In this document: piece by piece, positions 3,230 through 32,502 of the stretch
Numbering within the stretch: position 1 is the stretch's first letter
Layout of the letters: each line of letters begins with the position of its first letter
Program-made: the position numbers and the translations under genes
The notes under the pieces: generated by a model
Told to the model about the DNA's origin: nothing
Seen by the model: the letters and a program-made list of their open reading frames with translations, nothing else
Database searches by the model: none
Virus record (IMG/VR): IMGVR_UViG_2636415833_000004
DNA length: 32,502 nucleotides
Direction: 5' to 3' (one strand)
DNA from: a virus
Taxonomy: Duplodnaviria > Heunggongvirae > Uroviricota > Caudoviricetes

Positions 3230-4095
3230 ATGCAGCCCTTCAAAAACGACAGATCCGCGCCAGTGAACAGCACGACAGCAGTAAAAATAAAAGAATGGCC
3301 GGGCGGGCTACTGGATTCCAGCGCAGACGCCAGTGACGCACCGCCACCGCTTCCCTTCCAGGACCAGACCTGCGCGGCGGTTTCGTTCAGCTTGTCAAAG
3401 TCACCAGCCAGATCAGAAACAGCCTTTTCACGCAGCTTTACCAGTTCCGCCAATGTATCGACCGGCGCGCGGGTTTTATGTGCGGCCAGCATCGCCATTT
3501 CTGACAACAGCAGGCGGCGCGATTCACGGTGATTTTTTTCGATCAGGTCGCCAGACTCCGGCCACGCCGGATAGGTCAGCGCGCCGGGGCGTTGCATTTT
3601 CTGGGATTCCTTGCCAGCGTGAGCGCGGGCGGTGTTCAGTGCCTGCGTAAATCCGGGGGCGGGCAAGGTGTCACAGACTTTTGTCAGCTTGCTAATGAAG
3701 TCCCCAATCTGACCAGCGCAAACAAGTAAACAAACGGCGTCACCGCCTGCGCCCATTCTCAGATCTGCACCATCGCGCAATTTTTCGGCCAGCCGTTTGA
3801 CGGCGTTCGGCGGGCTAAGATAAGTGCCGCTTTCTTCCTCCTTACCCGCGCCAAACGTCCAGTTATGAACGGCGATTTGCTGCCCGTTCGTTGTCAGTTT
3901 ATCCAGTTCGACGCGCAGATCGGCAACCTGATCCGCCTGCCCCGCCAATTCTGGCTGCGGCCACTGCGCCCGCGATTCCAGCGCGCGCAATGCGTTAATG
4001 CCAGGGGATGACAGCGACGACAACGCACCGTTTAACGTGTCATGCGGCGTTTTCACTTCATCCGGCAGTTTTAACTGTCCATTACTCCACGCCAT
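3226..4095 (-). CDS. hypothetical protein, unknown function
   Basis: Track start at 4188 is TTG with a 118-nt overlap; first ATGs at 4113 and 4095, the latter preceded by a GGGG Shine-Dalgarno-like element; no recognisable motif. Confidence 0.35.
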   Translation of the reverse strand: MAWSNGQLKLPDEVKTPHDTLNGALSSLSSPGINALRALESRAQWPQPELAGQADQVADLRVELDKLTTNGQQIAVHNWTFGAGKEEESGTYLSPPNAVKRLAEKLRDGADLRMGAGGDAVCLLVCAGQIGDFISKLTKVCDTLPAPGFTQALNTARAHAGKESQKMQRPGALTYPAWPESGDLIEKNHRESRRLLLSEMAMLAAHKTRAPVDTLAELVKLREKAVSDLAGDFDKLNETAAQVWSWKGSGGGASLASALESSSPPGHSFIFTAVVLFTGADLSFLKGCI

Positions 4096-4559
4096 GAATA
4101 ACCCCGCTCCCATTCGCTGGAAACCAGCGCGTGTAACTGGCCGGGCGAATAACGCCAGGCATCCCGTAACTGCATAAATTCGGCACAAAACTCGCTACAA
4201 AACCACTTTTCAGGATTCCCACGGCAAAACAGCAAAAAGCCGATAACCCCGGCGATGTCGTATTTTTTCCCCGCGTACAGGCGGTAAAAACTGGCGATTT
4301 CCTGCGGGCTGGCGCTGATTTCGATCAAGTCCCATTTGTCAGAGGGTAAAGGCATTGTTTTAGCCCTGACCCCGCCATCACGGAACGATGACGAATAGCA
4401 GGTAAAATCCGTGCCGACGTCGTAGCACTGCGGCCCCACGGCGATTTCACAATGTGAATACGGACTGCGGGTAACAAGGCGTGTCACCCAGTCCGCCAGG
4501 CTGGCTAGTCCGTTGTGATCGCTGCGGCCACGATAAAACGCAATAAACACCGCGTTCAT
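4071..4559 (-). CDS. putative permuted papain-fold (YiiX/YaeF, NlpC/P60-superfamily-like) cysteine peptidase/amidase
   Basis: Track start 4568 is GTG; ATG at 4559 forms ATGA overlap with tail fibre assembly gene stop; conserved-looking His (YSHCEIAV) before Cys (WFCSEFC), the order typical of permuted NlpC/P60 enzymes; assignment from memory. Confidence 0.4.
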   Translation of the reverse strand: MNAVFIAFYRGRSDHNGLASLADWVTRLVTRSPYSHCEIAVGPQCYDVGTDFTCYSSSFRDGGVRAKTMPLPSDKWDLIEISASPQEIASFYRLYAGKKYDIAGVIGFLLFCRGNPEKWFCSEFCAEFMQLRDAWRYSPGQLHALVSSEWERGYSWRGVMDS

Positions 4560-5158
4560 GGTTGCCACCCCAGGGACCAGTCGTAAGCCTCAACGGCGGC
4601 AATATCGCCCAGGGCATCCACTGCCGCAATATGCGCCTGCGCAACGGCAAACAAACGCATATCGTGTTCAATGGTCACAAACTCAAACTGTGCGGCGATT
4701 GCGTTGGTCAGTTCAATCAGCCCGTTATTTTTGGTTTGCCACATCAGACCGGGCGGAACCGCGCCCGCCTGTCCCATTTTTGCCAGCGTCATCTGCTGAA
4801 TGCGGCTGTTAGCGTCGCTATGGAAGCGATTCCCGTCGATCACGATGTAATCGGCGGTGACGGCGTCCCTATGTGCTTTTATATCCTGTTCAACCTGCGC
4901 TTTAATCTGCTTCAGCGCGGCGGCAAATGCTGCCGCGTCATAAATCCATTTATCACCGTCCAGGCGATAATATTCGCCCGGTGGCGGCGTTGTTACGAGC
5001 TTTCCAGCAGCGGGATTTACCCAGCAATCACGATCGCGGTAACGCCACTGCACATCCGTTAATTGCATGACCGTTTCAGGCAGAACAATGTCAAACTGAT
5101 CGGTGTCCAGCCATGCTAGGACCTTCATTGATTCAGAATCAAAATATACATATTTCAT
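4556..5158 (-). CDS. tail fibre assembly protein (gpG-like chaperone)
   Basis: 200-aa ORF immediately downstream of the tail fibre gene, ATG start; position and size typical of tail fibre assembly proteins. Confidence 0.6.
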   Translation of the reverse strand: MKYVYFDSESMKVLAWLDTDQFDIVLPETVMQLTDVQWRYRDRDCWVNPAAGKLVTTPPPGEYYRLDGDKWIYDAAAFAAALKQIKAQVEQDIKAHRDAVTADYIVIDGNRFHSDANSRIQQMTLAKMGQAGAVPPGLMWQTKNNGLIELTNAIAAQFEFVTIEHDMRLFAVAQAHIAAVDALGDIAAVEAYDWSLGWQP

Positions 5159-5161
5159 TGA

Positions 5162-7171
5162 TCACCATGACAATTTAACAAAACCCGGCGACCCATTGCC
5201 GCCCGGGAAACAGTTCGCACCAGAAGTCCCATAAGCACCAGCCGACCCGCCCGCACCGTATCCGGTGCCATTGTGACTACCACCGATAACCCCGCAACCA
5301 CCATCGCCATATACTGACGACGCTCCATTATTGCCCGCAGTGGCTTTTGTAGTACCAGTACCGCCAGTAGTACCACCATAACCACCAGAACCACCGGGTG
5401 ACGACACTCCCGAAAATGAAGACGCGCCGCCAGCAGTCCCCGAATTACCCTTGGTCATATTGCCTGCTGATGACGTGACTACGGTTCCCCCTACCCCCCC
5501 ACCTCCGACAACGACAGAAAGGACCGCGCCAGGTGTGACGGTGACAATTGTCGTCACCGGTTTTGACGCACCACCCCCACCACCAGAATATGCACCACCG
5601 CCACCGCCACCGCCGCCACCGCCGAGCACCTCTACCGACATTTTTTTTACACCGGCAGGGACAGTAAATGACCCATTCGCGGTGTACATTGCGTACTTAT
5701 TTAAGTAGCGCGCATCAGCATTTGTTACGGTGATAAAGTCCGGCGCGCCGGTAATATCCGACCAGGGGTGCTTATGGCTTGCGGCAGCTGCATTTACGTC
5801 GCTGTACGTCAGCGTGATGTCCGCTGACAACGCCTTATTGTTAACCTTGCGCGTTGTCGGAACGGCGTTTACATCGCTGTACGTCAGCGTGATGTCTGCT
5901 GACAGCGCCTTATTGTTCACCTTGCGCGTTGTCGGCACAGCGTTTACATCGCTGTACGTCAGCGTGATGTCTGCTGACAGCGCCTTATTGTTCACCTTGC
6001 GCGTTGTCGGCACAGCGTTTACGTCGCTGTACGTCAGCGTGATGTCCGCTGACAGCGGCTTATCGTTCACTTTGCGCGTTGTCGGCACGGCGTTTACATC
6101 GCTGTATGTCAGCGTAATGTCTGCTGACAGTGCCTTATTGTTCACCTTGCGCGTATCCTGCACCGCGTGAACAATGCGCGAATCATCCCCGGCAGCTACC
6201 GTCCCCGCCGCCGTTCCCACGTTACGGGTTGCAGAATTCCCCAGTTTTAAATTTTCGCGGGATTTCACTACATCATCCAGATCGGACAGATTTAGCGACC
6301 GGCGTAAATAGCGCTTATCCAGATCGTCACTGTTACGCACTGGCCGTAAATCAGTGACCGCCCCGTCTGCGGCAATTTCAGCGATTTTGAATACGTAGTG
6401 GGTTTTCCCCGCAGCGTCCGAATATTCAGCCAGATCGCCCGACGTAATAACGCAGATATCAGTGACCGGCACGCAGGCAGTCATGACAGACCCCTGCCAG
6501 ACAGTATCCAGCCAGACGGCGGCGGGTTTAGTCCCGATCGCGACATCCTGCGCGGCTTCGTTCGCCAATCGCAAACCGGCCACATAACCCAACCCAGGCA
6601 GGCAGTTATATTTCACCCCGCTACGTTGAACCAGCCACCCATCATCAAAAAACAGCGCACTGCCGTAATGATCGATATTCAGTAAACGCTGATAATCATC
6701 AATACCCGTCAGACGGGCGGTAAAATCGATCTGCCACGTTTCGGCAGGTGTATTAATCCCTGTCTTGTCTGCAGCACCGTTAAATTCAATCAAAAACGAG
6801 CGGGTAAACGCGTTTCCCTGTTCCGTCGCCGTCGTTTTCACCTTTTCCAGCGCCGGGACCGTTGTCACCATCGCTAAAAGGCCCGTTTTTTTGCAAATCA
6901 GTCCGATCCAGTTAAACGAAAAATTGCCGACGTTTGTTCCCAGGGTAAACGAGTACGCAACCGTGTTTTTATTAACCACGCCCGCAGCGTTGACGGATTC
7001 GCGGTAAACAATTTGCGCGGCATCCGGCAGACCGGCGTCACGGTTTATCACCGCATCCGGATCAAGGCCGGGCACATTAGCCAAAACAAATTCATCCAGC
7101 GAAATGTCGCCCGGCGTCAGCAGATCAGCGGCTTGCCATTGCTCAAACGCCGTCGTGATAATTGTTGCCAT
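5162..7171 (-). CDS. tail fibre protein with tandem 25-aa repeats and glycine-rich C-terminal domain
   Basis: 669 aa; N-terminus MATIITTAFEQW resembles P2 H-type fibre N-termini; five tandem copies of TRKVNNKALSADITLTYSDVNAVPT; C-terminal ~150 aa dominated by Gly runs. Confidence 0.75.
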   Translation of the reverse strand: MATIITTAFEQWQAADLLTPGDISLDEFVLANVPGLDPDAVINRDAGLPDAAQIVYRESVNAAGVVNKNTVAYSFTLGTNVGNFSFNWIGLICKKTGLLAMVTTVPALEKVKTTATEQGNAFTRSFLIEFNGAADKTGINTPAETWQIDFTARLTGIDDYQRLLNIDHYGSALFFDDGWLVQRSGVKYNCLPGLGYVAGLRLANEAAQDVAIGTKPAAVWLDTVWQGSVMTACVPVTDICVITSGDLAEYSDAAGKTHYVFKIAEIAADGAVTDLRPVRNSDDLDKRYLRRSLNLSDLDDVVKSRENLKLGNSATRNVGTAAGTVAAGDDSRIVHAVQDTRKVNNKALSADITLTYSDVNAVPTTRKVNDKPLSADITLTYSDVNAVPTTRKVNNKALSADITLTYSDVNAVPTTRKVNNKALSADITLTYSDVNAVPTTRKVNNKALSADITLTYSDVNAAAASHKHPWSDITGAPDFITVTNADARYLNKYAMYTANGSFTVPAGVKKMSVEVLGGGGGGGGGGAYSGGGGGASKPVTTIVTVTPGAVLSVVVGGGGVGGTVVTSSAGNMTKGNSGTAGGASSFSGVSSPGGSGGYGGTTGGTGTTKATAGNNGASSVYGDGGCGVIGGSHNGTGYGAGGSAGAYGTSGANCFPGGNGSPGFVKLSW
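5786..6154 (-). repeat. five tandem 75-bp in-frame coding repeats inside the tail fibre gene
   Basis: Near-identical 75-bp units visible directly in the DNA; encode aa ~340-462 of the fibre; not CRISPR (no spacers, fully coding). Confidence 0.85.
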
Positions 7172-20449: not shown

Positions 20450-21484
20450 ATGGCAAAACGTAAAAAACAACAACCAGCCCCGGCCCTCGCGCCAGCTATT
20501 CAAAAACAGATGTCTTTTAGCGTGGAATTCGGCGACGCCGAGCGCGTGCCGTGCCTGGGTTCATATGATGGCGTAACAGATGAAGGAGACGGCTACTGGA
20601 CGCCGCCCATTGACCGGGAAGCGCTGGCAAAATTGCCCGACATCGCAACGTACCACGGCGCATGTCTGGGGGCGCGCGCGAAAATGGTCGCGGCGGGTTT
20701 TCTTCGCGGCGGCGGTCTGACGCCTGAAACCGCCCTGGCGCTGGCCGTTAACTTCGTGACGTTCGGTGACGTGGCGCTGTTAAAGATCCGCAACGGCTTC
20801 GGGCAGGTCGTGCGCCTGTACCCGCTGCCGTCTGTTTATGTGCGGCGTTCCACTGACGGCAAAACAAAATTATTGTTACGCGACGGCGAATATAAAGAAT
20901 ATGCCGCAAAAGATATTATTTTTATCCGTCAGTACGATACGTTGCAGCAGATTTACGGAAAACCGGATTATTTAGGCGGCATCCAGTCGGCGATGTTAAA
21001 TAGTGACGCGACCATGTTTCGCCGCAAATATTATCGTAATGGGGCGCATTTAGGTTATATCCTGTATGCCACCGATCCGGATTTATCACCAGAAATGGAA
21101 AAGGCCATTTCTGAAAAAATAGAACAGTCAAAAGGCGCGGGTAATTTCCGCAGTATGTTTATTAACATCCCCAACGGTAAACCAGACGGCGTTAAAATTA
21201 TCCCTGTGGGTGATGTCGCAACAAAAGATGAATATGTGAATATCAAGCGCATATCCGCACAGGACCAGTTAACCGCCCATCGCTTCCCGCCTGGCCTTGC
21301 GGGCATTATTCCGGATAACGTGGGCGGACTGGGCGACCCGTTAAAAGTCCGTGCCGTATATCAATTAGATGAAGTCTGGCCCATGCAGGCGCTAATTGAG
21401 AATGCAATCAATAGTGATTCTGAAATTACCCGCGCAATGCAGGTGTTATTCAAAAAACCGAAAGCGATAGAGGATGAAAAATAA
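20450..21484 (+). CDS. Q: portal protein, P2 gpQ-like
   Basis: 344 aa (same length as P2 gpQ); FRRKYYRNGAHLGYILYATD matches remembered P2 Q segment FRRKYYENGAHAGYIMYVTD. Confidence 0.85.
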   Translation: MAKRKKQQPAPALAPAIQKQMSFSVEFGDAERVPCLGSYDGVTDEGDGYWTPPIDREALAKLPDIATYHGACLGARAKMVAAGFLRGGGLTPETALALAVNFVTFGDVALLKIRNGFGQVVRLYPLPSVYVRRSTDGKTKLLLRDGEYKEYAAKDIIFIRQYDTLQQIYGKPDYLGGIQSAMLNSDATMFRRKYYRNGAHLGYILYATDPDLSPEMEKAISEKIEQSKGAGNFRSMFINIPNGKPDGVKIIPVGDVATKDEYVNIKRISAQDQLTAHRFPPGLAGIIPDNVGGLGDPLKVRAVYQLDEVWPMQALIENAINSDSEITRAMQVLFKKPKAIEDEK

Positions 21485-21798
21485 TGGCTAAACGGTTAAA
21501 ATATACCCCGCTCAAAAATAGATTAAGGGGAAACAAATTGCGCAGCCCGAAAATTATCTGTCCGGAATGCAACGGCAATTCAACGATCAAAAAGACCGTG
21601 CGGAAACATCCCCATCTATCAGATGTTTATTGCGCCTGTAATAACGTTGAGTGCGGTCATACTTTCGTCGTTAATATAACATTTTCTCACACATTAAGCC
21701 CCAGCGCGCTTTCATCTGACCGCGCTATCAAAACGCTGATCGATATGATGTCGCCAGAACAAAAACAAAAAACATTATACCTGTTGTTACCAAGCTAA
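21484..21798 (+). CDS. ogr: Ogr/Delta-family zinc-finger late transcription activator
   Basis: CPEC...YCACNNVECGHTF matches the Ogr C-x2-C ... C-x4-C zinc finger (YHQCQNVNCSATF in P2); ATG overlaps Q stop (TAATG); alternative TTG start at 21538 with AAGGGG upstream. Confidence 0.65.
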   Translation: MAKRLKYTPLKNRLRGNKLRSPKIICPECNGNSTIKKTVRKHPHLSDVYCACNNVECGHTFVVNITFSHTLSPSALSSDRAIKTLIDMMSPEQKQKTLYLLLPS

Positions 21799-21830
21799 AA
21801 AAAGGGCAGATTTGAACTGCCCATTATCTT
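21797..21830 (-). terminator. rho-independent terminator between convergent ogr-like and cargo genes, strongest on minus strand
   Basis: GGGCAG (21804..21809) / CTGCCC (21817..21822) stem with 7-nt loop; A7 on plus strand gives U7 on minus strand directly after the hairpin. Confidence 0.65.
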
Positions 21831-23151
21831 ATTCAGTCCCCTTTTCCATCTGCTGTGGCTTATCTGCAACTACAGAGGGTTTAGCCTTACGATCAAGGAT
21901 ATTTTTAACATAGTTTACATTATCAATCGAAGAATCAAGAAATTTAGAAAAAGCTTTAGAGTTTAACATTTCCATCCATGGTGTTGAGTGATCATCACCT
22001 TGGACAAATCTTAATGGGGCTTCCTCTAGACGGGTTAAAGCAGAATCAAACAACCGAGTAGCGAATGTTCCATCATCAAGTTGCGATGCTTCTTTTCTGT
22101 AACCCTCATATGCTTTTGCAACGGCAGACTTAAAGGCATAATCTTCTGCTAGCTTAAATCTTTGATTAATTTGCTTTGTAGACAACCACGCAAACCAAAG
22201 CGGCGCGCCGATACTAAATATGGATAGTATTAATTGCGTTGCAATCACTATTGCACTGGTATCTGGTTGCGCTAAAACATTGGATAATGCTTTTAACCTT
22301 TCATAACCAACAAACCCACCGGCAATTAATGCCGCAGATAATCCTGCTACCCATAAACGAATGCTACAGTTTAACTTATTCGCTTTGATCTCAAAAGCTC
22401 CCGCTAACCCTTTTGAAGTCGAAGCACGAATAGCTTCCTCACATTTCGAAAGATAATTTTCTGCGATCTCTTTTTTTGCATTTAACTCTTCTTTTATCTT
22501 TTCCCCTTCGTTTAGACAAACATCCATTAAGACATTCGAATGAGATGCTTCTTCTTTTGCCTTTAAAATGTACTCTTTTATTTCCGTTAATTCTGCCTTG
22601 TATTTATTTAACTCTTCCATATATACCGGTAGATTATCAGCTGCGGCATATGCATCGTTAATCAATTTAATTTTACCTTCCAGTGTTTCAATTTCTGGAG
22701 TAGCTTGTCTTACTCTTGCATCCATACTCCGTATTTTACGTGCTAATTTCTGAGGTACGGCATCCGTATCCTGGAGTCGGTCGAAGGAAATCAAAGAATC
22801 TAAAAATGAAGATATATATGTCATGGTCATTAAAAATGAAGGAATCGCTTGTACACCATTTCCATTATAAAAGCTAGGAGCAAGGTCAGAATGTACCTTT
22901 GTTACGACTTTTCTTACATAGTCGAGTTCATCTAGTTCGAAATCAGTTAATTTAAGCATCTCTAATTTTTTTGACTTCTCGATCATTCTTTCAATATAGT
23001 CAGAAAAGTCTTTTGGCAACATTACAGGATGACCGATGCCAAATGCTTCTATAAGCCATTTATTTTTATGCCCATATGATTTTTCAGACTCATCAAAATA
23101 ATCTTTTAATTTATCTAGAGCATTTATAAATTCATTTAACTCAGCGTACAT
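21829..23151 (-). CDS. hypothetical coiled-coil / two-transmembrane-helix protein; candidate accessory (defence or exclusion) gene
   Basis: 440 aa, ATG with GAGGT 5 nt upstream; visibly AT-rich; coiled-coil N-terminal half, two hydrophobic helices (aa ~265-283 and ~299-323), ~115-aa C-terminal domain; no similarity recognised to phage core proteins. Confidence 0.75.
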   Translation of the reverse strand: MYAELNEFINALDKLKDYFDESEKSYGHKNKWLIEAFGIGHPVMLPKDFSDYIERMIEKSKKLEMLKLTDFELDELDYVRKVVTKVHSDLAPSFYNGNGVQAIPSFLMTMTYISSFLDSLISFDRLQDTDAVPQKLARKIRSMDARVRQATPEIETLEGKIKLINDAYAAADNLPVYMEELNKYKAELTEIKEYILKAKEEASHSNVLMDVCLNEGEKIKEELNAKKEIAENYLSKCEEAIRASTSKGLAGAFEIKANKLNCSIRLWVAGLSAALIAGGFVGYERLKALSNVLAQPDTSAIVIATQLILSIFSIGAPLWFAWLSTKQINQRFKLAEDYAFKSAVAKAYEGYRKEASQLDDGTFATRLFDSALTRLEEAPLRFVQGDDHSTPWMEMLNSKAFSKFLDSSIDNVNYVKNILDRKAKPSVVADKPQQMEKGTE

Positions 23152-27686: not shown

Positions 27687-28254
27687 GATTCACCTTCTCC
27701 GCGCGAACGGCAGAAATGTTTTTGATATCGTCGCTTAATCTGGCAATCTGGTTAATAACGTCATTCATTGCGTGATGCGGATGTTCCAGAACCGCGCGCA
27801 TTGATGAATGACCGCATATTGTCAGCGCGATTTCTGCAACCGTTCTAACGTCGCGAGCATTCCAGAAATTCCAGGCCGGACGAATCCCTGTCAGGCGCAT
27901 TGAGTGATAAATAACTGGTAAATCAAAATCAGTGCCGCGCGCCCATATTTTTAAATTGTCTGAATCATCACAAAAACAACAAAAATCGTTCAACTTATAG
28001 AGCGACTCTGATAAAGGCAAGCCAGCATCAGATACAAGCTCATCTCTTGCGCATAAATTTTGCTTCATCCACCATTTAACAGTATCCGCACCAATTGTCG
28101 CCCCTTTGTATTGAGCATCAGCAACATTGACGGGAATATAAATAGACATCCCAATCTCGCCAGTTCGGGGATCGAAAAATGCGGCAGCAATAGAAACAAT
28201 TGCGGCAGTTGGTTTATTGTCTAATGTTTCAATGTCAATCATTATATTATTCAT
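27667..28254 (-). CDS. 3'-5' exonuclease, DnaQ-like (DEDD family)
   Basis: N-terminal MIDIETLD Exo I motif and conserved His/Asp near C-terminus (HHAMNDV). Confidence 0.65.
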   Translation of the reverse strand: MNNIMIDIETLDNKPTAAIVSIAAAFFDPRTGEIGMSIYIPVNVADAQYKGATIGADTVKWWMKQNLCARDELVSDAGLPLSESLYKLNDFCCFCDDSDNLKIWARGTDFDLPVIYHSMRLTGIRPAWNFWNARDVRTVAEIALTICGHSSMRAVLEHPHHAMNDVINQIARLSDDIKNISAVRAEKVNHDSPEK

Positions 28255-28256
28255 GA

Positions 28257-28472
28257 TTAGATTCCGTATGGTGAAGAGGGAAGAGATGGACGGCTCAGCG
28301 CATTAGTAAGACGACGGCGCATGGATTGTATAAATGCAACAACATCAGGATCTGTTGATGCCAGTGTTAATTCGCCTGCGTTACGCGTTTTTATAGTCAT
28401 TCCGCGCTCTTCAAGCTCCGGTAAAAATGAATGCAATACAAAACTGTATTCATCCCGTTTAGTCATAGACAT
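28257..28472 (-). CDS. hypothetical protein
   Basis: 71 aa, ATG start, within the early operon. Confidence 0.4.
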   Translation of the reverse strand: MSMTKRDEYSFVLHSFLPELEERGMTIKTRNAGELTLASTDPDVVAFIQSMRRRLTNALSRPSLPSSPYGI

Positions 28473-28549
28473 ATAATTACCCGTTTTTAGGTTGAAAGAA
28501 TCCGCACCACTTTTTAAAGTGATGTGTGATATTTAATAAATTCAGTTAA

Positions 28550-28780
28550 TTAAAAATAGCGTTTAATTAATTTAATCAATGCGGCTATTACGCCCCTGTT
28601 TATTTTTTGCGTATATACAAAAGGCCTGTTTCTGCCCTTAATAAACTGAACTTTTGCCGGTTCAGGCTTAAAATAACGCCCGTCCGGTGTTTCAATCCAG
28701 CCGCGCGTCGATTTGCAATGTGTGACCTGGCAACCGTTACGTAATAGACTGGCGAATGAAGGAATTTGTTGTTCACTCAT
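28550..28780 (-). CDS. hypothetical protein
   Basis: Track start 28831 is TTG; ATG at 28780 forms ATGA overlap with upstream ORF stop. Confidence 0.35.
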   Translation of the reverse strand: MSEQQIPSFASLLRNGCQVTHCKSTRGWIETPDGRYFKPEPAKVQFIKGRNRPFVYTQKINRGVIAALIKLIKRYF

Positions 28781-28998
28781 AAAAGACACTCTGAAAGGGA
28801 AACGACGCCAAATATTAGCAACCAGCCACAAAATACATCTAAAAATAATGGTGCCGCCGCTTCAATATCCCTGTGTAATGCGTCAATAAAACGGATTCTG
28901 TTGCTACTGTTTTTTAATCTTCCGTAGGACCAAACAACAACGGCCCCCAAAATAAAAACCGCAACATTAAATATCCCCGAAAAAAAATATTGGCTCAT
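28777..28998 (-). CDS. hypothetical small membrane protein (two predicted TM helices)
   Basis: 73 aa, ATG start, two hydrophobic segments. Confidence 0.4.
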   Translation of the reverse strand: MSQYFFSGIFNVAVFILGAVVVWSYGRLKNSSNRIRFIDALHRDIEAAAPLFLDVFCGWLLIFGVVSLSECLL

Positions 28999-29009
28999 TG
29001 CGCACCCGT

Positions 29010-29246
29010 TTATCTGCCAGTAATGGCAAGCTTTAGATCAGCGATCAGGCGGTCCAGTTGGTGGCGTCCGTCATCGTTCAGTGCGTCAATGCCGTAATCA
29101 AACGCGGCCAGAATTGCCATTTCCATTTCGCGGGATTCGATCGCGACGGGCAGTCGCTTACCCGGTTGCACATATACCGGCACGTCGTACCCTTCATAAA
29201 ACGGATCGACTTCCCGCGCCTTTTCTGTGTTAAGTGGATTAAACAT
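29010..29246 (-). CDS. hypothetical early protein
   Basis: Track start 29258 is TTG; ATG at 29246 with strong GAGAGG Shine-Dalgarno 4-5 nt upstream. Confidence 0.45.
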   Translation of the reverse strand: MFNPLNTEKAREVDPFYEGYDVPVYVQPGKRLPVAIESREMEMAILAAFDYGIDALNDDGRHQLDRLIADLKLAITGR

Positions 29247-29254
29247 TTTTCCTC

Positions 29255-29674
29255 TCAATTAAACGCTGTCGTTTTTGTCAGGCTGGCTTCGGCAGTCATA
29301 AAAGCTCTGGCATACCATGCAACCATATTGATTTGTCTTAGTTCGCGACGATTTGGATCGACACGCGGCACTAATGGCAGATAGCCGCGCTCAGCATCGC
29401 TTTGAACCTTACGCAAAGACTGTCCGAAGAATTCGGAAAATTCCTGCACTGTTAAAACCGGTTTAATGCCACTACTAAGGATATGTTTCAGTGCGCGGTC
29501 AATTGCCATTAGTTCACGTTCAGAACGACTATCAGGGGATCGCCGAGCGCGGCGCTGATGATTGCTTTGAGTCTGTTCGGGTAAAAACGCGCCTTGTGCC
29601 AGTTCAACGACCGGGTAGTAACCAGGATCAGCCTCCTGATGTGCGGGTAAAGCTCTGTTTTGCTCTGGTGTCAT
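29255..29674 (-). CDS. Cox/Apl-like HTH early regulator (putative excisionase/switch protein)
   Basis: First gene of early operon, divergent from C; ATG 29674 with AGGA upstream; C-terminal LTVQEFSEFFGQSLRKVQSDAERGYLPLV resembles P2 Cox (IPYQEFAKLIGKSTGAVRRMIDKGKLPVI); an internal ATG at 29509 would give a Cox-sized 84-aa product. Confidence 0.55.
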   Translation of the reverse strand: MTPEQNRALPAHQEADPGYYPVVELAQGAFLPEQTQSNHQRRARRSPDSRSERELMAIDRALKHILSSGIKPVLTVQEFSEFFGQSLRKVQSDAERGYLPLVPRVDPNRRELRQINMVAWYARAFMTAEASLTKTTAFN

Positions 29675-29771
29675 TTGATATCCTGTCTGTTTAGATTGGT
29701 TTCGCTTGTCTTCAAGTAGTCTAATTAGACTGCATGAAGGGAAATTTAATGTCTAATTGGACTACTGTCAA
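29675..29771. promoter_or_regulatory. immunity switch region: candidate early promoter with operator repeats
   Basis: Minus strand TTGACA (29771..29766), 17-bp spacer, TAAATT (29748..29743); 13-bp direct repeats GTCTAATTAGACT (29719..29731) and GTCTAATTGGACT (29751..29763), the first within a perfect 14-bp palindrome AGTCTAATTAGACT (29718..29731). Confidence 0.55.
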
Positions 29772-30032
29772 ATGAAACTTGGTGAAAAATTAAAAGCGAT
29801 TAGAGCAGCCGAAGGTCTTAGTCAGAATGAGTTTTGCGAATTTATTGACTTATCTATAAATACGCTTAGGAAATATGAAACGGGGGGGTATGAACCTGGT
29901 GGTAGTGCTTTGGTTAAAATCGCCCAACACCCGCGCTTTCAAAAATACACGCTATGGCTGATGTCTGACATCACCGCACCAGAAGCAGGTCAGATAGCAC
30001 CAGTTACCAAAGAAGAGAAAAAGACCGGTTAA
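29757..30032 (+). CDS. C: P2 C-type immunity repressor (HTH); likely true start ATG at 29772
   Basis: C-terminal HPRFQKYTLWLMSDITAPEAGQIAPV matches remembered P2 C (TPQFTKYTLWFMTNQIAPESGQIAPA); track start 29757 is TTG, ATG at 29772. Confidence 0.75.
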   Translation: MDYCQMKLGEKLKAIRAAEGLSQNEFCEFIDLSINTLRKYETGGYEPGGSALVKIAQHPRFQKYTLWLMSDITAPEAGQIAPVTKEEKKTG

Positions 30033-30074
30033 TCACCGCCCGCACTGCGGGCGAATAATACATAAGGAAAATGT

Positions 30075-30524
30075 ATGTCAAAAGATAATGATACATTTAT
30101 ACCCCCAATACGCCCACCTCGTAATTCCCGCTATGAAGAACCATCACCAGAACTTATGAAAAGGCTACAACAAGTTACCCCTGAATTATTCGCTGAATTT
30201 TTGATGTCAAAAAACGCCGCTCAGTTCTGCATATCATGTGGATTTACTAAATTAACAATGTCCGAAAACGGAGTTTATAACGGTGCAAAGACTCCCGAAA
30301 ACTATGACTCTTTATCGCAAATCGATCAGGAGAAATTCGCAGCTGATAATACTCTCTGGTATGTAACGCCCGTGTTTGTGAATACTCATACAAAAATAAG
30401 ATTAGCCGATGTCGAATATAAAATTAATTGCCCAAACTGCGGGCATATCAGCATTTATCGCGCCCGCCCGGTCGTCGCATGGATAGAAGAGAATCGCAAG
30501 GAATGCAAAAATGAGTCAGACTAA
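30075..30524 (+). CDS. hypothetical zinc-ribbon protein (two CxxC pairs)
   Basis: 149 aa, ATG with AAGGAAA SD; Cys52/Cys55 (CISC) and Cys119/Cys122 (CPNC); inserted between the two C-type repressor genes. Confidence 0.55.
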   Translation: MSKDNDTFIPPIRPPRNSRYEEPSPELMKRLQQVTPELFAEFLMSKNAAQFCISCGFTKLTMSENGVYNGAKTPENYDSLSQIDQEKFAADNTLWYVTPVFVNTHTKIRLADVEYKINCPNCGHISIYRARPVVAWIEENRKECKNESD

Positions 30525-30945
30525 GGATAATGTTCATCATATAAGAGAACGTCAGGTACCCATAAATAATGAGTCCACAAACAGTAGTGACGACGGAGGC
30601 AACGGCATGAACAGCCTAATAAAACGCGTTGAAAAACTGGAAGACAATACCGGTGTAATTGTTAAAGAACTTACCCATCTCAACGCGCGCGCTGATGACT
30701 TCGCCTCAAAGGGCGATCTGCGTGAACTCAAGGCGCAGATAACTGGGGATATGAAAGAACTCCGTGCGCAGATGACCGGAGATATGCGCGAGCTTAAGGC
30801 ACAGATTAGCGGCGAACTCAAAGAGTCCAGGTCCGCAACCAGGGAAGATCTTGCAAAGGGATTACATAAGCAAATGATATGGCTATGCTCTGCCCTTTTC
30901 GCTACAGCAGGAGTCATAATCGCTTTGGTAAAAGATCTGTTCTAA
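30511..30945 (+). CDS. hypothetical coiled-coil protein with 11-residue repeats and C-terminal transmembrane anchor
   Basis: 144 aa; repeats GDLRELKAQIT / GDMKELRAQMT / GDMRELKAQIS; hydrophobic C-terminal helix MIWLCSALFATAGVIIALV; overlaps upstream gene by 14 nt. Confidence 0.55.
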   Translation: MSQTKDNVHHIRERQVPINNESTNSSDDGGNGMNSLIKRVEKLEDNTGVIVKELTHLNARADDFASKGDLRELKAQITGDMKELRAQMTGDMRELKAQISGELKESRSATREDLAKGLHKQMIWLCSALFATAGVIIALVKDLF

Positions 30946-31059
30946 TTGTGCGATATATTACTTTTTAATAAATTACACAAAAAATATACAACATATATTT
31001 TATATTGATTGATAATTACCATTTATTACATACATGAATTACTGATAAGCAGTTTTGGC

Positions 31060-31090
31060 TAAAATTTGTTCGTGTGCGAACAATACATTT
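31060..31090. promoter_or_regulatory. operator-like inverted repeat upstream of second C-type repressor
   Basis: TTGTTCG-tgtg-CGAACAA inverted repeat at about 31066..31083 in an AT-rich intergenic region; coordinates approximate to +/-2. Confidence 0.3.
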
Positions 31091-31126
31091 GCGCCCTGAA
31101 TGCCAATAATAGCAATCGAGGTGTAT

Positions 31127-31405
31127 ATGTCCTTGCGTAACCGCTTATTCTTGATAATTAATGCTGAAAATCTCACTATCTGCGAATTCGCGATATTTTG
31201 TGATATTTCGAAGAAGACACTGTATCAATTCAGGCAGCAAATAATAATGACGCTGCCTGATATTGATTTATTGAAGATCACCCGAAACCCCAGATTCAAT
31301 AAATATACGTTATGGATGATGACAAATAAGACCGCAGCATCATCCGGGCAAATCGATCCGGCGCTTTTCCCTCTTCGCTCGCCAAAACAATCTATTAACC
31401 AATAA
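31127..31405 (+). CDS. second P2 C-type repressor paralog, immediately upstream of int
   Basis: ATG 31127 with GAGGTG SD (track start 31100 is an upstream ATG); NPRFNKYTLWMMTNKTAASSGQIDPA aligns with the first C-like protein and P2 C. Confidence 0.6.
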   Translation: MSLRNRLFLIINAENLTICEFAIFCDISKKTLYQFRQQIIMTLPDIDLLKITRNPRFNKYTLWMMTNKTAASSGQIDPALFPLRSPKQSINQ

Positions 31406-31509
31406 CCCGAACTGGCAACAAATTGAACAGTTATATATTGCTGCCCGTGTTACCCAGTTCAGTTCGTCAGCAAATGACGACCAGCATTCACAGCCGGAGA
31501 AAATGACAA

Positions 31510-32502
31510 ATGACCATTACTAAAAAGGACAACGGAAAATACATGGTTGATGTTCGGCCTGCGGGGCGTTCCGGGAAGCGCGTCAGGCGTTCATTCTCCA
31601 CTAAATCAGAGGCTGTCACCTTTGAACGCTGGATAATAGCCAGTGCTAATAATAAAGAATGGCTGGAAAAACCAGCTGATCGGCGTCGGTTATCTGAACT
31701 GATCGAATTGTGGTGGAAGAACCACGGGCAAACGCTCACCGACTGCAAAAACCGGTTATGGATTTTGAATGCCTCATGCGCGCGCTTAAATAATCCACGT
31801 ATAACCCAACTCACCGCCCAGCTTTTTGCAGAGTACCGAACAAAACGGCGGGCAGAAGGGATCGCGCCAAAAACGTTAAATAATGAACAACGATACTTGA
31901 AGTCAGTGTTCAGTAAATTGAAAGAACTGGATCTATTCTGGGATAACAACCCAATGACTGGACTCGCAGAACTGAAACTGACCGAATCAGAACAGGGATA
32001 TTTTACTGACGAACAGATTAGAACGGTTCTGACAGAGTTAACAGGCGACAACAAGCTGATAGCCAAACTTTGTCTGTCCACCGGTGCACGATGGAGTGAA
32101 GGTGCAAAATTAACCAGGCAGAGACTGGTTAACGGCATGGTGACATTTACAAAAACCAAAAATGGCAAATCACGTTCAGTTCCTATCGGTAAGGAACTGG
32201 AAATGGAGTTAATGCAGAGGATTGAAGTACACGACAAACAACTGATTTTCCCGGATGCGAGCTATCAGACTGCACGAAAAGTTATTAAAGGCGCTGTTCC
32301 TGATCTACCTGACGGACAGGCAACTCACGCTTTCAGGCACACTTTCGCCTCTCATTTCATGGCAAACGGAGGAAACATATTGGTACTTCAACGAGTCCTG
32401 GGCCATCACAAAATCCAACAAACGATGACGTATGCCCACTTTGCCCCTGATCATTTGTTTGATGCGGTGACATTAAACCCATTAGCTACGATGAAAATAT
32501 AA
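31510..32502 (+). CDS. int: tyrosine integrase, P2 Int-like
   Basis: 330 aa; C-terminal catalytic region HAFRHTFASHF ... LGHHKIQQTMTYAHF (His-x-x-Arg and Tyr); directly downstream of C-type repressor as in P2. Confidence 0.85.
   Translation: MTITKKDNGKYMVDVRPAGRSGKRVRRSFSTKSEAVTFERWIIASANNKEWLEKPADRRRLSELIELWWKNHGQTLTDCKNRLWILNASCARLNNPRITQLTAQLFAEYRTKRRAEGIAPKTLNNEQRYLKSVFSKLKELDLFWDNNPMTGLAELKLTESEQGYFTDEQIRTVLTELTGDNKLIAKLCLSTGARWSEGAKLTRQRLVNGMVTFTKTKNGKSRSVPIGKELEMELMQRIEVHDKQLIFPDASYQTARKVIKGAVPDLPDGQATHAFRHTFASHFMANGGNILVLQRVLGHHKIQQTMTYAHFAPDHLFDAVTLNPLATMKI

Follow-up and report, generated by a model that had tools for sequence, protein, structure and literature searches.

The window analysed here, that is, the whole 32,502-nucleotide stretch of the IMG/VR virus record IMGVR_UViG_2636415833_000004 (Caudoviricetes), is a P2-like prophage, and our interest lies in two overlapping genes close to its right end. 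These genes, which we call ZnR (zinc-ribbon gene, 30075-30524) and TA (tail-anchored gene, 30511-30945), stand between the repressor gene C and a second C-like gene designated C' (31127-31405). At this end of the prophage the minus strand carries Fil (28550-28831) and a Cox-like gene (29255-29674), and the plus strand carries C, ZnR, TA, C' and a P2-type integrase gene (int) that closes the window (Table 1). ZnR and TA share their orientation with C and int, opposite to that of the early lytic operon. In Escherichia coli 40EC the host gene mipA comes after the integrase gene, and a region about 98% identical, adjoining mipA/yeaG, is found in 7 of 5426 complete E. coli genomes. A first description made from the letters of the window, hereafter the original prediction, had listed the two C-like genes, ZnR and TA and had read the pair as a moron or exclusion module inserted into the immunity region; each of the features that it described was recovered in our analysis where it had been placed.

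Table 1. Features of the region from cox to int at the right end of the window
Feature	Position	Strand	Description
Cox-like excisionase/early repressor	29255..29674	-	phrog_575 7.4e-9, weak Pfam Phage_Cox; divergent from C
Pe/Pc switch region	29675..29771	.	two operator-like repeats and a leftward promoter-like site
C, primary P2-type immunity repressor	29772..30032	+	HTH_3, phrog_147 and P2 C structure matches
GC-rich stem-loop CGCCCGC-ACT-GCGGGCG	30037..30053	+	former intrinsic terminator of C; T-tract lost; left junction
ZnR	30075..30524	+	149-aa acidic four-cysteine zinc-ribbon protein, phrog_4293
TA	30511..30945	+	144-aa tail-anchored coiled-coil inner-membrane protein, XhlA-like group
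AT-rich spacer	30946..31047	.	GC 0.295; no clear homology to the empty-site locus; right junction somewhere inside
C' leader/promoter region	31048..31126	+	conserved in L081, L082 and L113; core CGAACAATACATTTRCGCC...AATG...ATAGCAAT-GAGGTG-ATG
C'	31127..31405	+	92-aa paralog of C, directly upstream of int
P2-type tyrosine integrase (int)	31510..32502	+	Int_N 7.5e-32, Phage_integrase 3.4e-21; end of window and prophage

A cargo slot between two paralogous repressor genes

The insertion is best appreciated from a metagenomic contig (L113) that offers an empty site, where cox, C, an intrinsic terminator, an AT-rich leader, C' and int follow one another without any cargo. Behind C this contig has a canonical intrinsic terminator, CGCCCGCATTGCGGGCG then CTTTGTTTTA, which was scored as such. 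In the window the GC-rich stem is still present and folds at -15.3 kcal/mol (z -3.3), but homology with L113 stops at the base right after the stem and the T-tract is gone, which places the left junction of the insert at about 30054. The gap of 42 nt that separates C from ZnR holds this stem, with no T-tract and no promoter-like site, and a scan for promoters and terminators detected neither between the two genes. On the right-hand side, the whole spacer between TA and C' (30946-31126) has a GC content of 0.295-0.335, and an alignment finds roughly the last 80 nt before C' conserved across L081, L082 and L113. The original prediction had pointed to an AT-rich region with an inverted repeat behind the pair; such a region is indeed present, but most of its conserved part (about 31048-31126) is the leader of C' and not insert. 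The view that the whole AT-rich region was inserted was therefore rejected, the 80 nt or so nearest to C' being its native leader. Within this leader lies the palindrome TTGTTCG-TGTG-CGAACAA (31067-31084, 7-bp arms; hairpin fold z -2.1). An Rfam scan of 28000-32502 returned a single chance miRNA match (E 0.72), and no known small RNA was evident in the AT-rich spacer.

The same site can receive other cargo. A prophage of Enterobacter sp. MF024 (L081) reads cox, C, a gene for a 293-aa protein, C' and int, and the 293-aa protein (3845-4726) matches the PADLOC defence candidate PDC-S48 (4e-8) in addition to weak, sub-threshold BRCT matches. We also noted that this protein has internal DG(I/V)(I/V)(T/S)xxE repeats and that a DUF4760 gene (6596-7096) stands between int and host DNA in the same locus; in L081 both slots, C-C' and int-host, are filled by other cargo.

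The stretch from 30054 to about 31047 is accessory cargo, lodged in a slot between the tandem paralogous repressor genes of the lysogeny operon. The moron proposed originally is supported by the empty site in L113, the other cargo in L081, the junction at the stem and the mobility of the pair described below. Cargo hotspots of P2-like phages, such as old/tin, the cI-int hotspot of K139-like phages (PMC9122126) and the minor P2 hotspots int-att and int-primase (bioRxiv 10.64898/2026.02.27.708500), hold variable cargo, often for defence, in fixed slots of the backbone, and ZnR-TA occupies repressor-int and int-att slots in just this manner. The slot of the window differs from them in being bounded by two paralogous repressor genes, an arrangement not described in the literature cited here on P2-like hotspots, and in that its ZnR-TA cargo is missing from PADLOC. 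The order C, cargo, C', int represents an insertion slot not described before, together with a conserved second repressor gene that has been missed by RefSeq annotation.

This second gene deserves some attention of its own. C and C' are both full-length homologs of the P2 C repressor, 41% identical to each other over 78 aa (E 2e-17) and with a common C-terminal motif (PRF-KYTLW-M...GQI-P); C' matches phrog_147 at 1.5e-15 and P2 C (PDB 2XCJ/2L49) at 1.5e-8. No Pfam family was matched by C', the helix-turn-helix (HTH) domain included, and an HTH-like residue pattern can be made out in the alignment by eye only. Unlike P2 C, it has no divergent cox partner, and neither a cox gene nor a recognisable operator pair was found upstream, where the cargo and the AT-rich leader lie instead. 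Its orthologs are 52-69% identical, its dN/dS of 0.18-0.39 speaks for purifying selection, and it is kept in relatives whose slot is empty (L113) or holds other cargo (L081). We also considered a decaying recombination relic and rejected it on these grounds, C' being intact, conserved and under selection. C' makes up a conserved lineage of its own, fixed immediately upstream of int, and the description of the second repressor as a mere duplicate has to be given up in favour of a conserved gene family. Seven RefSeq E. coli genomes contain C' (NZ_CP070920.1 and six others), and none of them has a coding sequence annotated there. C' might control int or the cargo, or might give immunity to a second group of phages.

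The zinc-ribbon and tail-anchored proteins

The four cysteines of ZnR are arranged as CISC (residues 52-55) and CPNC (119-122), with 64 residues from C55 to C119, which agrees with the two CxxC pairs and the spacing of about 64 residues counted beforehand. Across 47 sequences that are only 19-36% identical to ZnR, the residues C52, C55, C119, C122, G123 and W136 are invariant. The AlphaFold model (pLDDT 92.4) has a disordered N-terminus of about 24 residues followed by a compact alpha/beta domain, and this confidently predicted fold is without structural relative in the libraries searched: it matched none of the solved or viral structures, and no curated zinc-ribbon family or solved zinc ribbon was matched either. 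No enzymatic motif and no signal peptide were found in ZnR, PADLOC-DB v2.0.0 gave no match and NCBIfam nothing meaningful. An exhaustive phmmer search recovered only 54 relatives among 1.84 billion cluster representatives, and a word-indexed protein search returned a near-identical E. coli protein only. It had been speculated in the original prediction that the protein senses nucleic acids. The family is acidic, with a median pI of 5.3, which counts against nucleic-acid binding and in favour of protein binding, and neither fold nor profile searches linked it to nucleic-acid-binding zinc ribbons above noise; the role of nucleic-acid sensor was accordingly rejected.

TA starts 14 nt before ZnR ends, an overlap from which translational coupling of TA to ZnR may be deduced. 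In the AF2 monomer model residues 1-31 are disordered and followed by a helix (32-64), a break at 65-66 inside the motif FASKGD, and a second helix (67-143). The hydrophobic maximum, taken as the membrane helix, spans residues 122-140 and ends four residues from the C-terminus, and no signal peptide is present. The stalk contains three to four 11-residue repeats (KGDLRELKAQI, TGDMKELRAQM, TGDMRELKAQI and SGELKESRSAT), for which the program TRF reports a 33-nt period in 1.9 copies; the three consecutive repeats and the single C-terminal transmembrane helix announced for this gene are thus real features of it. A tblastn search of the phage collection with the window TA gave no match because the stalk diverges fast, and partners in other loci were therefore located by their position. 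Against PADLOC-DB v2.0.0 the protein gave coiled-coil noise to PbeC only (E 0.001), and NCBIfam yielded nothing meaningful.

The partners located in this way have a common plan. It comprises an N-terminal part of 15-35 residues with a hydrophobic-(D)-F/Y-P-K/R motif, which is degenerate in the window TA, then a Gly/Asp-rich linker of the form GGGGxGGDGGD, a coiled-coil stalk of very variable length, and finally a W-containing junction that leads into a membrane helix at the very C-terminus. In the stalks one finds the motif [aliphatic]-A-T-K-[polar]-[D/E], seen as FATKAD, FATKSD, FSTKSD and YANKED. This recalls the beta-layer motif of trimeric alpha/beta coiled coils, which include Tcar0761 with its MATKDDIAN nonads and the DUF1640/CCDC90 membrane proteins (Hartmann et al. 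2016, PMC4786415). The DUF1640 proteins have a C-terminal membrane anchor, as does the TA family, and the profile of the family matches the GCN4-fusion crystal constructs of that work. One homolog (L074, 4431-5063; the protein of L090 is the same) contains six near-perfect tandem nonads, (F/T)ATKADLQ(N/S), and its FATKADLQx units resemble the Tcar0761 nonads, which were solved as trimers. The window TA, in contrast to Tcar0761, has a single motif of this type, FASKGD (residues 63-68, S replacing T), where the AF2 helix breaks, and beside it three 11-residue repeats of the form x-T/S-G-D/E-hydrophobic; its Pfam CCDC90-like match (0.0042) is below threshold. The likeness lies at the level of a structural motif, homology not being established, and by analogy the coiled coil of the TA stalk is probably trimeric.

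A second relationship leads to the XhlA family. Pfam XhlA (PF10779) is matched by 5 of the 12 aligned TA-type partners, at best with 1.6e-6, and many of the 87 matches to the TA profile carry PF10779 or the NCBI name 'hemolysin XhlA family protein'; there is similarity at family level also to phrog_689 'holin' and phrog_1193 'hemolysin'. The 'haemolysin' label of XhlA we take, partly from the way in which it is cited in PMC4553209, to come from an unrelated Xenorhabdus protein that shares its name. PBSX XhlA is small, as TA is, and likewise combines a cytoplasmic coiled coil at the N-terminus with one membrane helix at the C-terminus. It is encoded in a Gram-positive phage lysis cassette beside the holin XhlB and the endolysin XlyA and has no zinc-ribbon partner, whereas TA stands in a lysis cassette at none of the loci examined; the TA family, moreover, adds the N-terminal F/Y-P motif and the Gly/Asp-rich linker and belongs to lysogeny modules of Enterobacterales phages. 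TA links cargo of Gram-negative prophages to the poorly understood XhlA family of holin accessories and to beta-layer coiled coils. Apart from this family-level link of TA to XhlA, the pair matched no characterised regulatory or lysis protein.

TA is built as a mosaic. Its N-terminal peptide travels with ZnR, and the stalk with the membrane helix is exchanged as a separate block at the Gly-rich linker. Between L004 and L040, for instance, ZnR is 91% identical and the TA N-terminus 88%, but the coil only 16%, whereas between L004 and L034 ZnR is 61% identical, the coil 98% and the membrane helix 100%.

Contexts of the pair and its possible function

Profile-guided scans with ZnR gave 60 viral and 4 genomic loci, to which exact-protein look-ups added more, and in all the pair was encountered in about 100 retrieved loci. 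Only two of the 55 distinct ZnR-TA pairs are damaged (L039 and L075, one truncated and one frameshifted). At almost every ZnR locus an open reading frame (ORF) for a tail-anchored coiled-coil protein begins at or before the ZnR stop codon, the two genes sharing up to 37 nt or following one another without a gap. Seen from the TA side, ZnR is immediately upstream in 27 of 31 loci, two further loci have another partner of about 143 aa and one holds a fusion remnant. In diverged pairs dN/dS is 0.08-0.26 for ZnR and 0.07-0.21 for TA. Invariant cysteines, dN/dS well below 1 and the recurrence of the pair lead us to regard ZnR and TA as real genes and not as chance ORFs. The alternative partners of about 143 aa, which precede the TA homologs of the viral contigs L108 (2447-2878) and L110 (2478-2912), are cysteine-poor, only 23% identical to each other and matched no Pfam or PHROG family; they suggest that the tail-anchored protein can be paired with partners other than ZnR.

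Four contexts were distinguished. In a first group of P2-like prophages the order is C, int, ZnR, TA and host DNA (L002, L011-14, L069-73, L076-80), and in a second it is repressor, other cargo, ZnR, TA and int (the window, L019, L020, L037 and L074); in P2-like prophages other than the window ZnR abuts or overlaps int. In lambdoid loci an HTH+Peptidase_S24 CI repressor is followed 12-54 nt later by ZnR and then by TA, at the rexAB position (L089, L092, L094 and L096, confirmed by Pfam, and L097, judged from sequence). In siphoviruses such as Salmonella SPN3UB and Klebsiella ST101-KPC2phi6.1, the pair belongs to an arc/antirepressor island upstream of the tape-measure gene. Carriers of the pair include temperate phages in culture from Klebsiella, Salmonella and Enterobacter as well as prophages throughout the Enterobacterales, the hosts being Escherichia, Klebsiella, Salmonella, Enterobacter, Citrobacter, Yersinia, Serratia, Xenorhabdus and Buttiauxella. 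ZnR-TA is a self-contained, horizontally mobile two-gene unit that moves between unrelated phage backbones. Among P2-like phages it is sporadic: the phage collection has 106 records with a C'-like repressor and 14 with a ZnR homolog, only one of the latter being P2-like. The pair is thus no standing part of the C-int interval, since nearly all P2-type phages of this collection are without it and the locus is carried by so few of the E. coli genomes. As a separate observation, an extra tail-anchored protein of 203-211 aa is encoded between repressor and ZnR in L019 (4349-4984), L020 (4021-4650) and L074 (3285-3896); that of L074 has a precomputed Pfam Flk_N assignment, and L020 adds a very acidic ORF of 100 aa.

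Genes adjoining prophage repressors have repeatedly proved to be defence systems, as in the cases of RexAB, BstA and P2 hotspot cargo. RexAB and BstA are lysogen-expressed defence genes downstream of cI (PMC8585504): like the pair, they lie directly downstream of the maintenance repressor and co-oriented with it, and so are expressed in the lysogen. In the window the pair is placed in this Rex-like way, 42 nt after C, co-oriented and with no promoter of its own found, and in the lambdoid loci L089, L092, L094 and L096 (and L097) it sits exactly where rexAB would be. RexAB resembles ZnR-TA further in its two-gene design of one cytoplasmic and one membrane partner, but no sequence or fold similarity was found between the two systems, RexB is polytopic whereas TA is a tail-anchored coiled coil, and RexA, which does not bind zinc, far exceeds ZnR in size. 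Since the unit is tied to lysogeny genes, lacks a separate promoter at the P2-like and lambdoid loci and occupies known defence positions, we favour the reading that ZnR-TA is a lysogen-expressed, Rex-like defence module, an argument by position and analogy to which we lend slightly less than even confidence.

With neither a promoter nor a working terminator between C and ZnR, read-through from Pc would be the obvious route of expression, and the pair would then be transcribed together with C in the lysogen. ZnR, acting as a sensor or latch, would dock on the N-terminal peptide of TA and so be held at the cytoplasmic side of the inner membrane. The XhlA-like TA, possibly as a trimer, would be a holin-like membrane effector that aborts or excludes infection, and the module would protect the lysogen from other phages in the manner of lambda RexAB.

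Several observations speak against this proposal. No known enzymatic or sensor domain was found in ZnR or TA, and neither gave a meaningful match in PADLOC-DB. The window TA itself has no PF10779 match at E<=0.1. The co-inheritance of ZnR and the TA N-terminus fits a docking peptide, but it could reflect physical linkage alone, and the overall Spearman rho is only 0.26. The positional argument is one of guilt by association, as such slots also hold non-defence genes. In the siphoviruses the pair is found within the region of the tail genes and reads in the same direction as late genes and an antirepressor gene, and its expression in the lysogen is not evident there.

Other explanations were weighed, and all of them fit the contexts less well than a defence module does. 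The best of them, which we nonetheless consider unlikely, is a prophage-stabilising addiction module of toxin-antitoxin type, in which TA would be the membrane-damaging toxin and the acidic ZnR its coupled antidote, and the module would act chiefly to keep the prophage in its host. In favour are the small size of the module, its mobility and its link to prophages, the relation of TA to a family of holin accessories, and a gene order and overlap, with the small acidic protein first and 14 nt shared, that resemble those of type II toxin-antitoxin operons; the likeness to these modules is one of operon layout only. Pfam, NCBIfam and PADLOC returned no toxin or antitoxin family for either protein, ZnR is without a DNA-binding domain for autoregulation and the pair without a promoter of its own. 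Such a module would be only partly a rival, since many abortive-infection systems are toxin-antitoxin-like and the mechanisms overlap with defence.

Less probable still is an accessory role in lysis or lysis timing of the phage itself, with TA working alongside the phage holin as PBSX XhlA does and ZnR as regulator. XhlA of PBSX is a membrane protein required with the holin XhlB and the endolysin XlyA for lysis (PMC5589764), and the family-level similarity of TA to XhlA, phrog_689 'holin' and phrog_1193 'hemolysin' points the same way. However, in none of about 100 loci does the pair lie in a lysis cassette, its places being lysogeny operons, prophage edges and arc/ant islands; it is sporadic among P2-like phages, whose lysis cassettes are complete, and it runs in the direction of C and int, against that of the early lytic operon.

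We attach the same low weight to a regulatory role, in which the pair would steer the choice between lysis and lysogeny or control integration and excision, for instance as a factor held at the membrane that would sequester or modulate C, Cox, Int or an antirepressor. One module serving repressors as unrelated as P2 C, S24 CI and the Arc/Mnt type argues against a specific partner, close relatives work without the pair (the empty site of L113) and the slot also holds unrelated cargo, even though the pair consistently adjoins immunity functions (C, CI, int, arc/ant) and ZnR, being acidic and without enzymatic motif, resembles a protein-binding module. Finally, it seems very improbable that the pair is a lysogenic-conversion factor acting on host physiology or virulence (a 'hemolysin' or a modulator of envelope stress) and unrelated to conflict between phages, as the database name 'hemolysin XhlA family protein' might suggest and as was speculated in terms of virulence for XhlA-domain genes adjoining cI in lambdoid phages of Mannheimia (PMC4553209), because ZnR and TA face the cytoplasm, have no signal peptides and in the case of TA extend only about 4 residues past the membrane helix, the name itself being probably borrowed as explained above.

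Returning to the Rex-like defence module, the pair is a compact and well-delimited candidate, under purifying selection yet missing from PADLOC-DB v2.0.0, and a literature search for a prophage pair of zinc-ribbon and tail-anchored proteins found nothing relevant. It is tempting to go further and propose that ZnR-TA is a widespread, unrecognised system of abortive infection or exclusion in temperate phages of Enterobacterales, analogous to RexAB, in which a zinc protein of new fold latches a trimeric, tail-anchored, holin-like effector, and that C/C' delimits a new cargo slot with C' as a second functional repressor. This combined proposal may be correct, but we advance it more tentatively than the defence reading by itself.

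Switch region and neighbouring genes

The listed ORF of C (29757..30032) opens at a TTG codon at 29757, and its likely start is the ATG at 29772, which gives 86 aa. It matches Pfam HTH_3 (1.6e-9), phrog_147 (8.4e-29) and P2 C (PDB 2XCJ/2L49; 1.2e-13) and has the layout of P2 C-type repressors, namely a divergent cox-like gene, operator-like repeats (GTCTAATTAGACT at 29719-29731 and GTCTAATTGGACT at 29751-29763 by repeat search) and a leftward promoter-like site (TTGACA-17-TAAATT, running from 29771 to 29743 by promoter scan). The Cox-like gene is 99-100% identical among the E. coli relatives.

Some minor observations concern the rest of the prophage. The main cargo hotspot of P2, from the portal gene to gpA, corresponds in the window to 21484-23151 and contains an Ogr/Delta-like zinc-finger gene (21484-21798, Pfam 5.9e-13) and, on the minus strand, a 440-aa ORF (21829-23151) with no Pfam family and marginal PADLOC matches to LmuB and MTase_I (E 8e-4), which may be another cargo gene. 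Between the Fil-like gene and an 82-aa ORF, a 73-aa ORF (28777-28998, minus strand) encodes two hydrophobic segments; it matched no Pfam or PHROG family and had no tblastn match in E. coli 40EC, and it is 100% conserved in two IMG/VR relatives. Lastly, the window and the prophage of E. coli 40EC (L001), otherwise 97-100% identical, differ by an immunity swap. The swapped block (29710-29955 in the window, 6110-6355 in L001) covers the operator region plus the N-terminal two thirds of C, which leaves C only 62% identical between the two. Cox, the remaining third of C (which starts at the YTLWLM motif), ZnR, TA, C' and int are unswapped.

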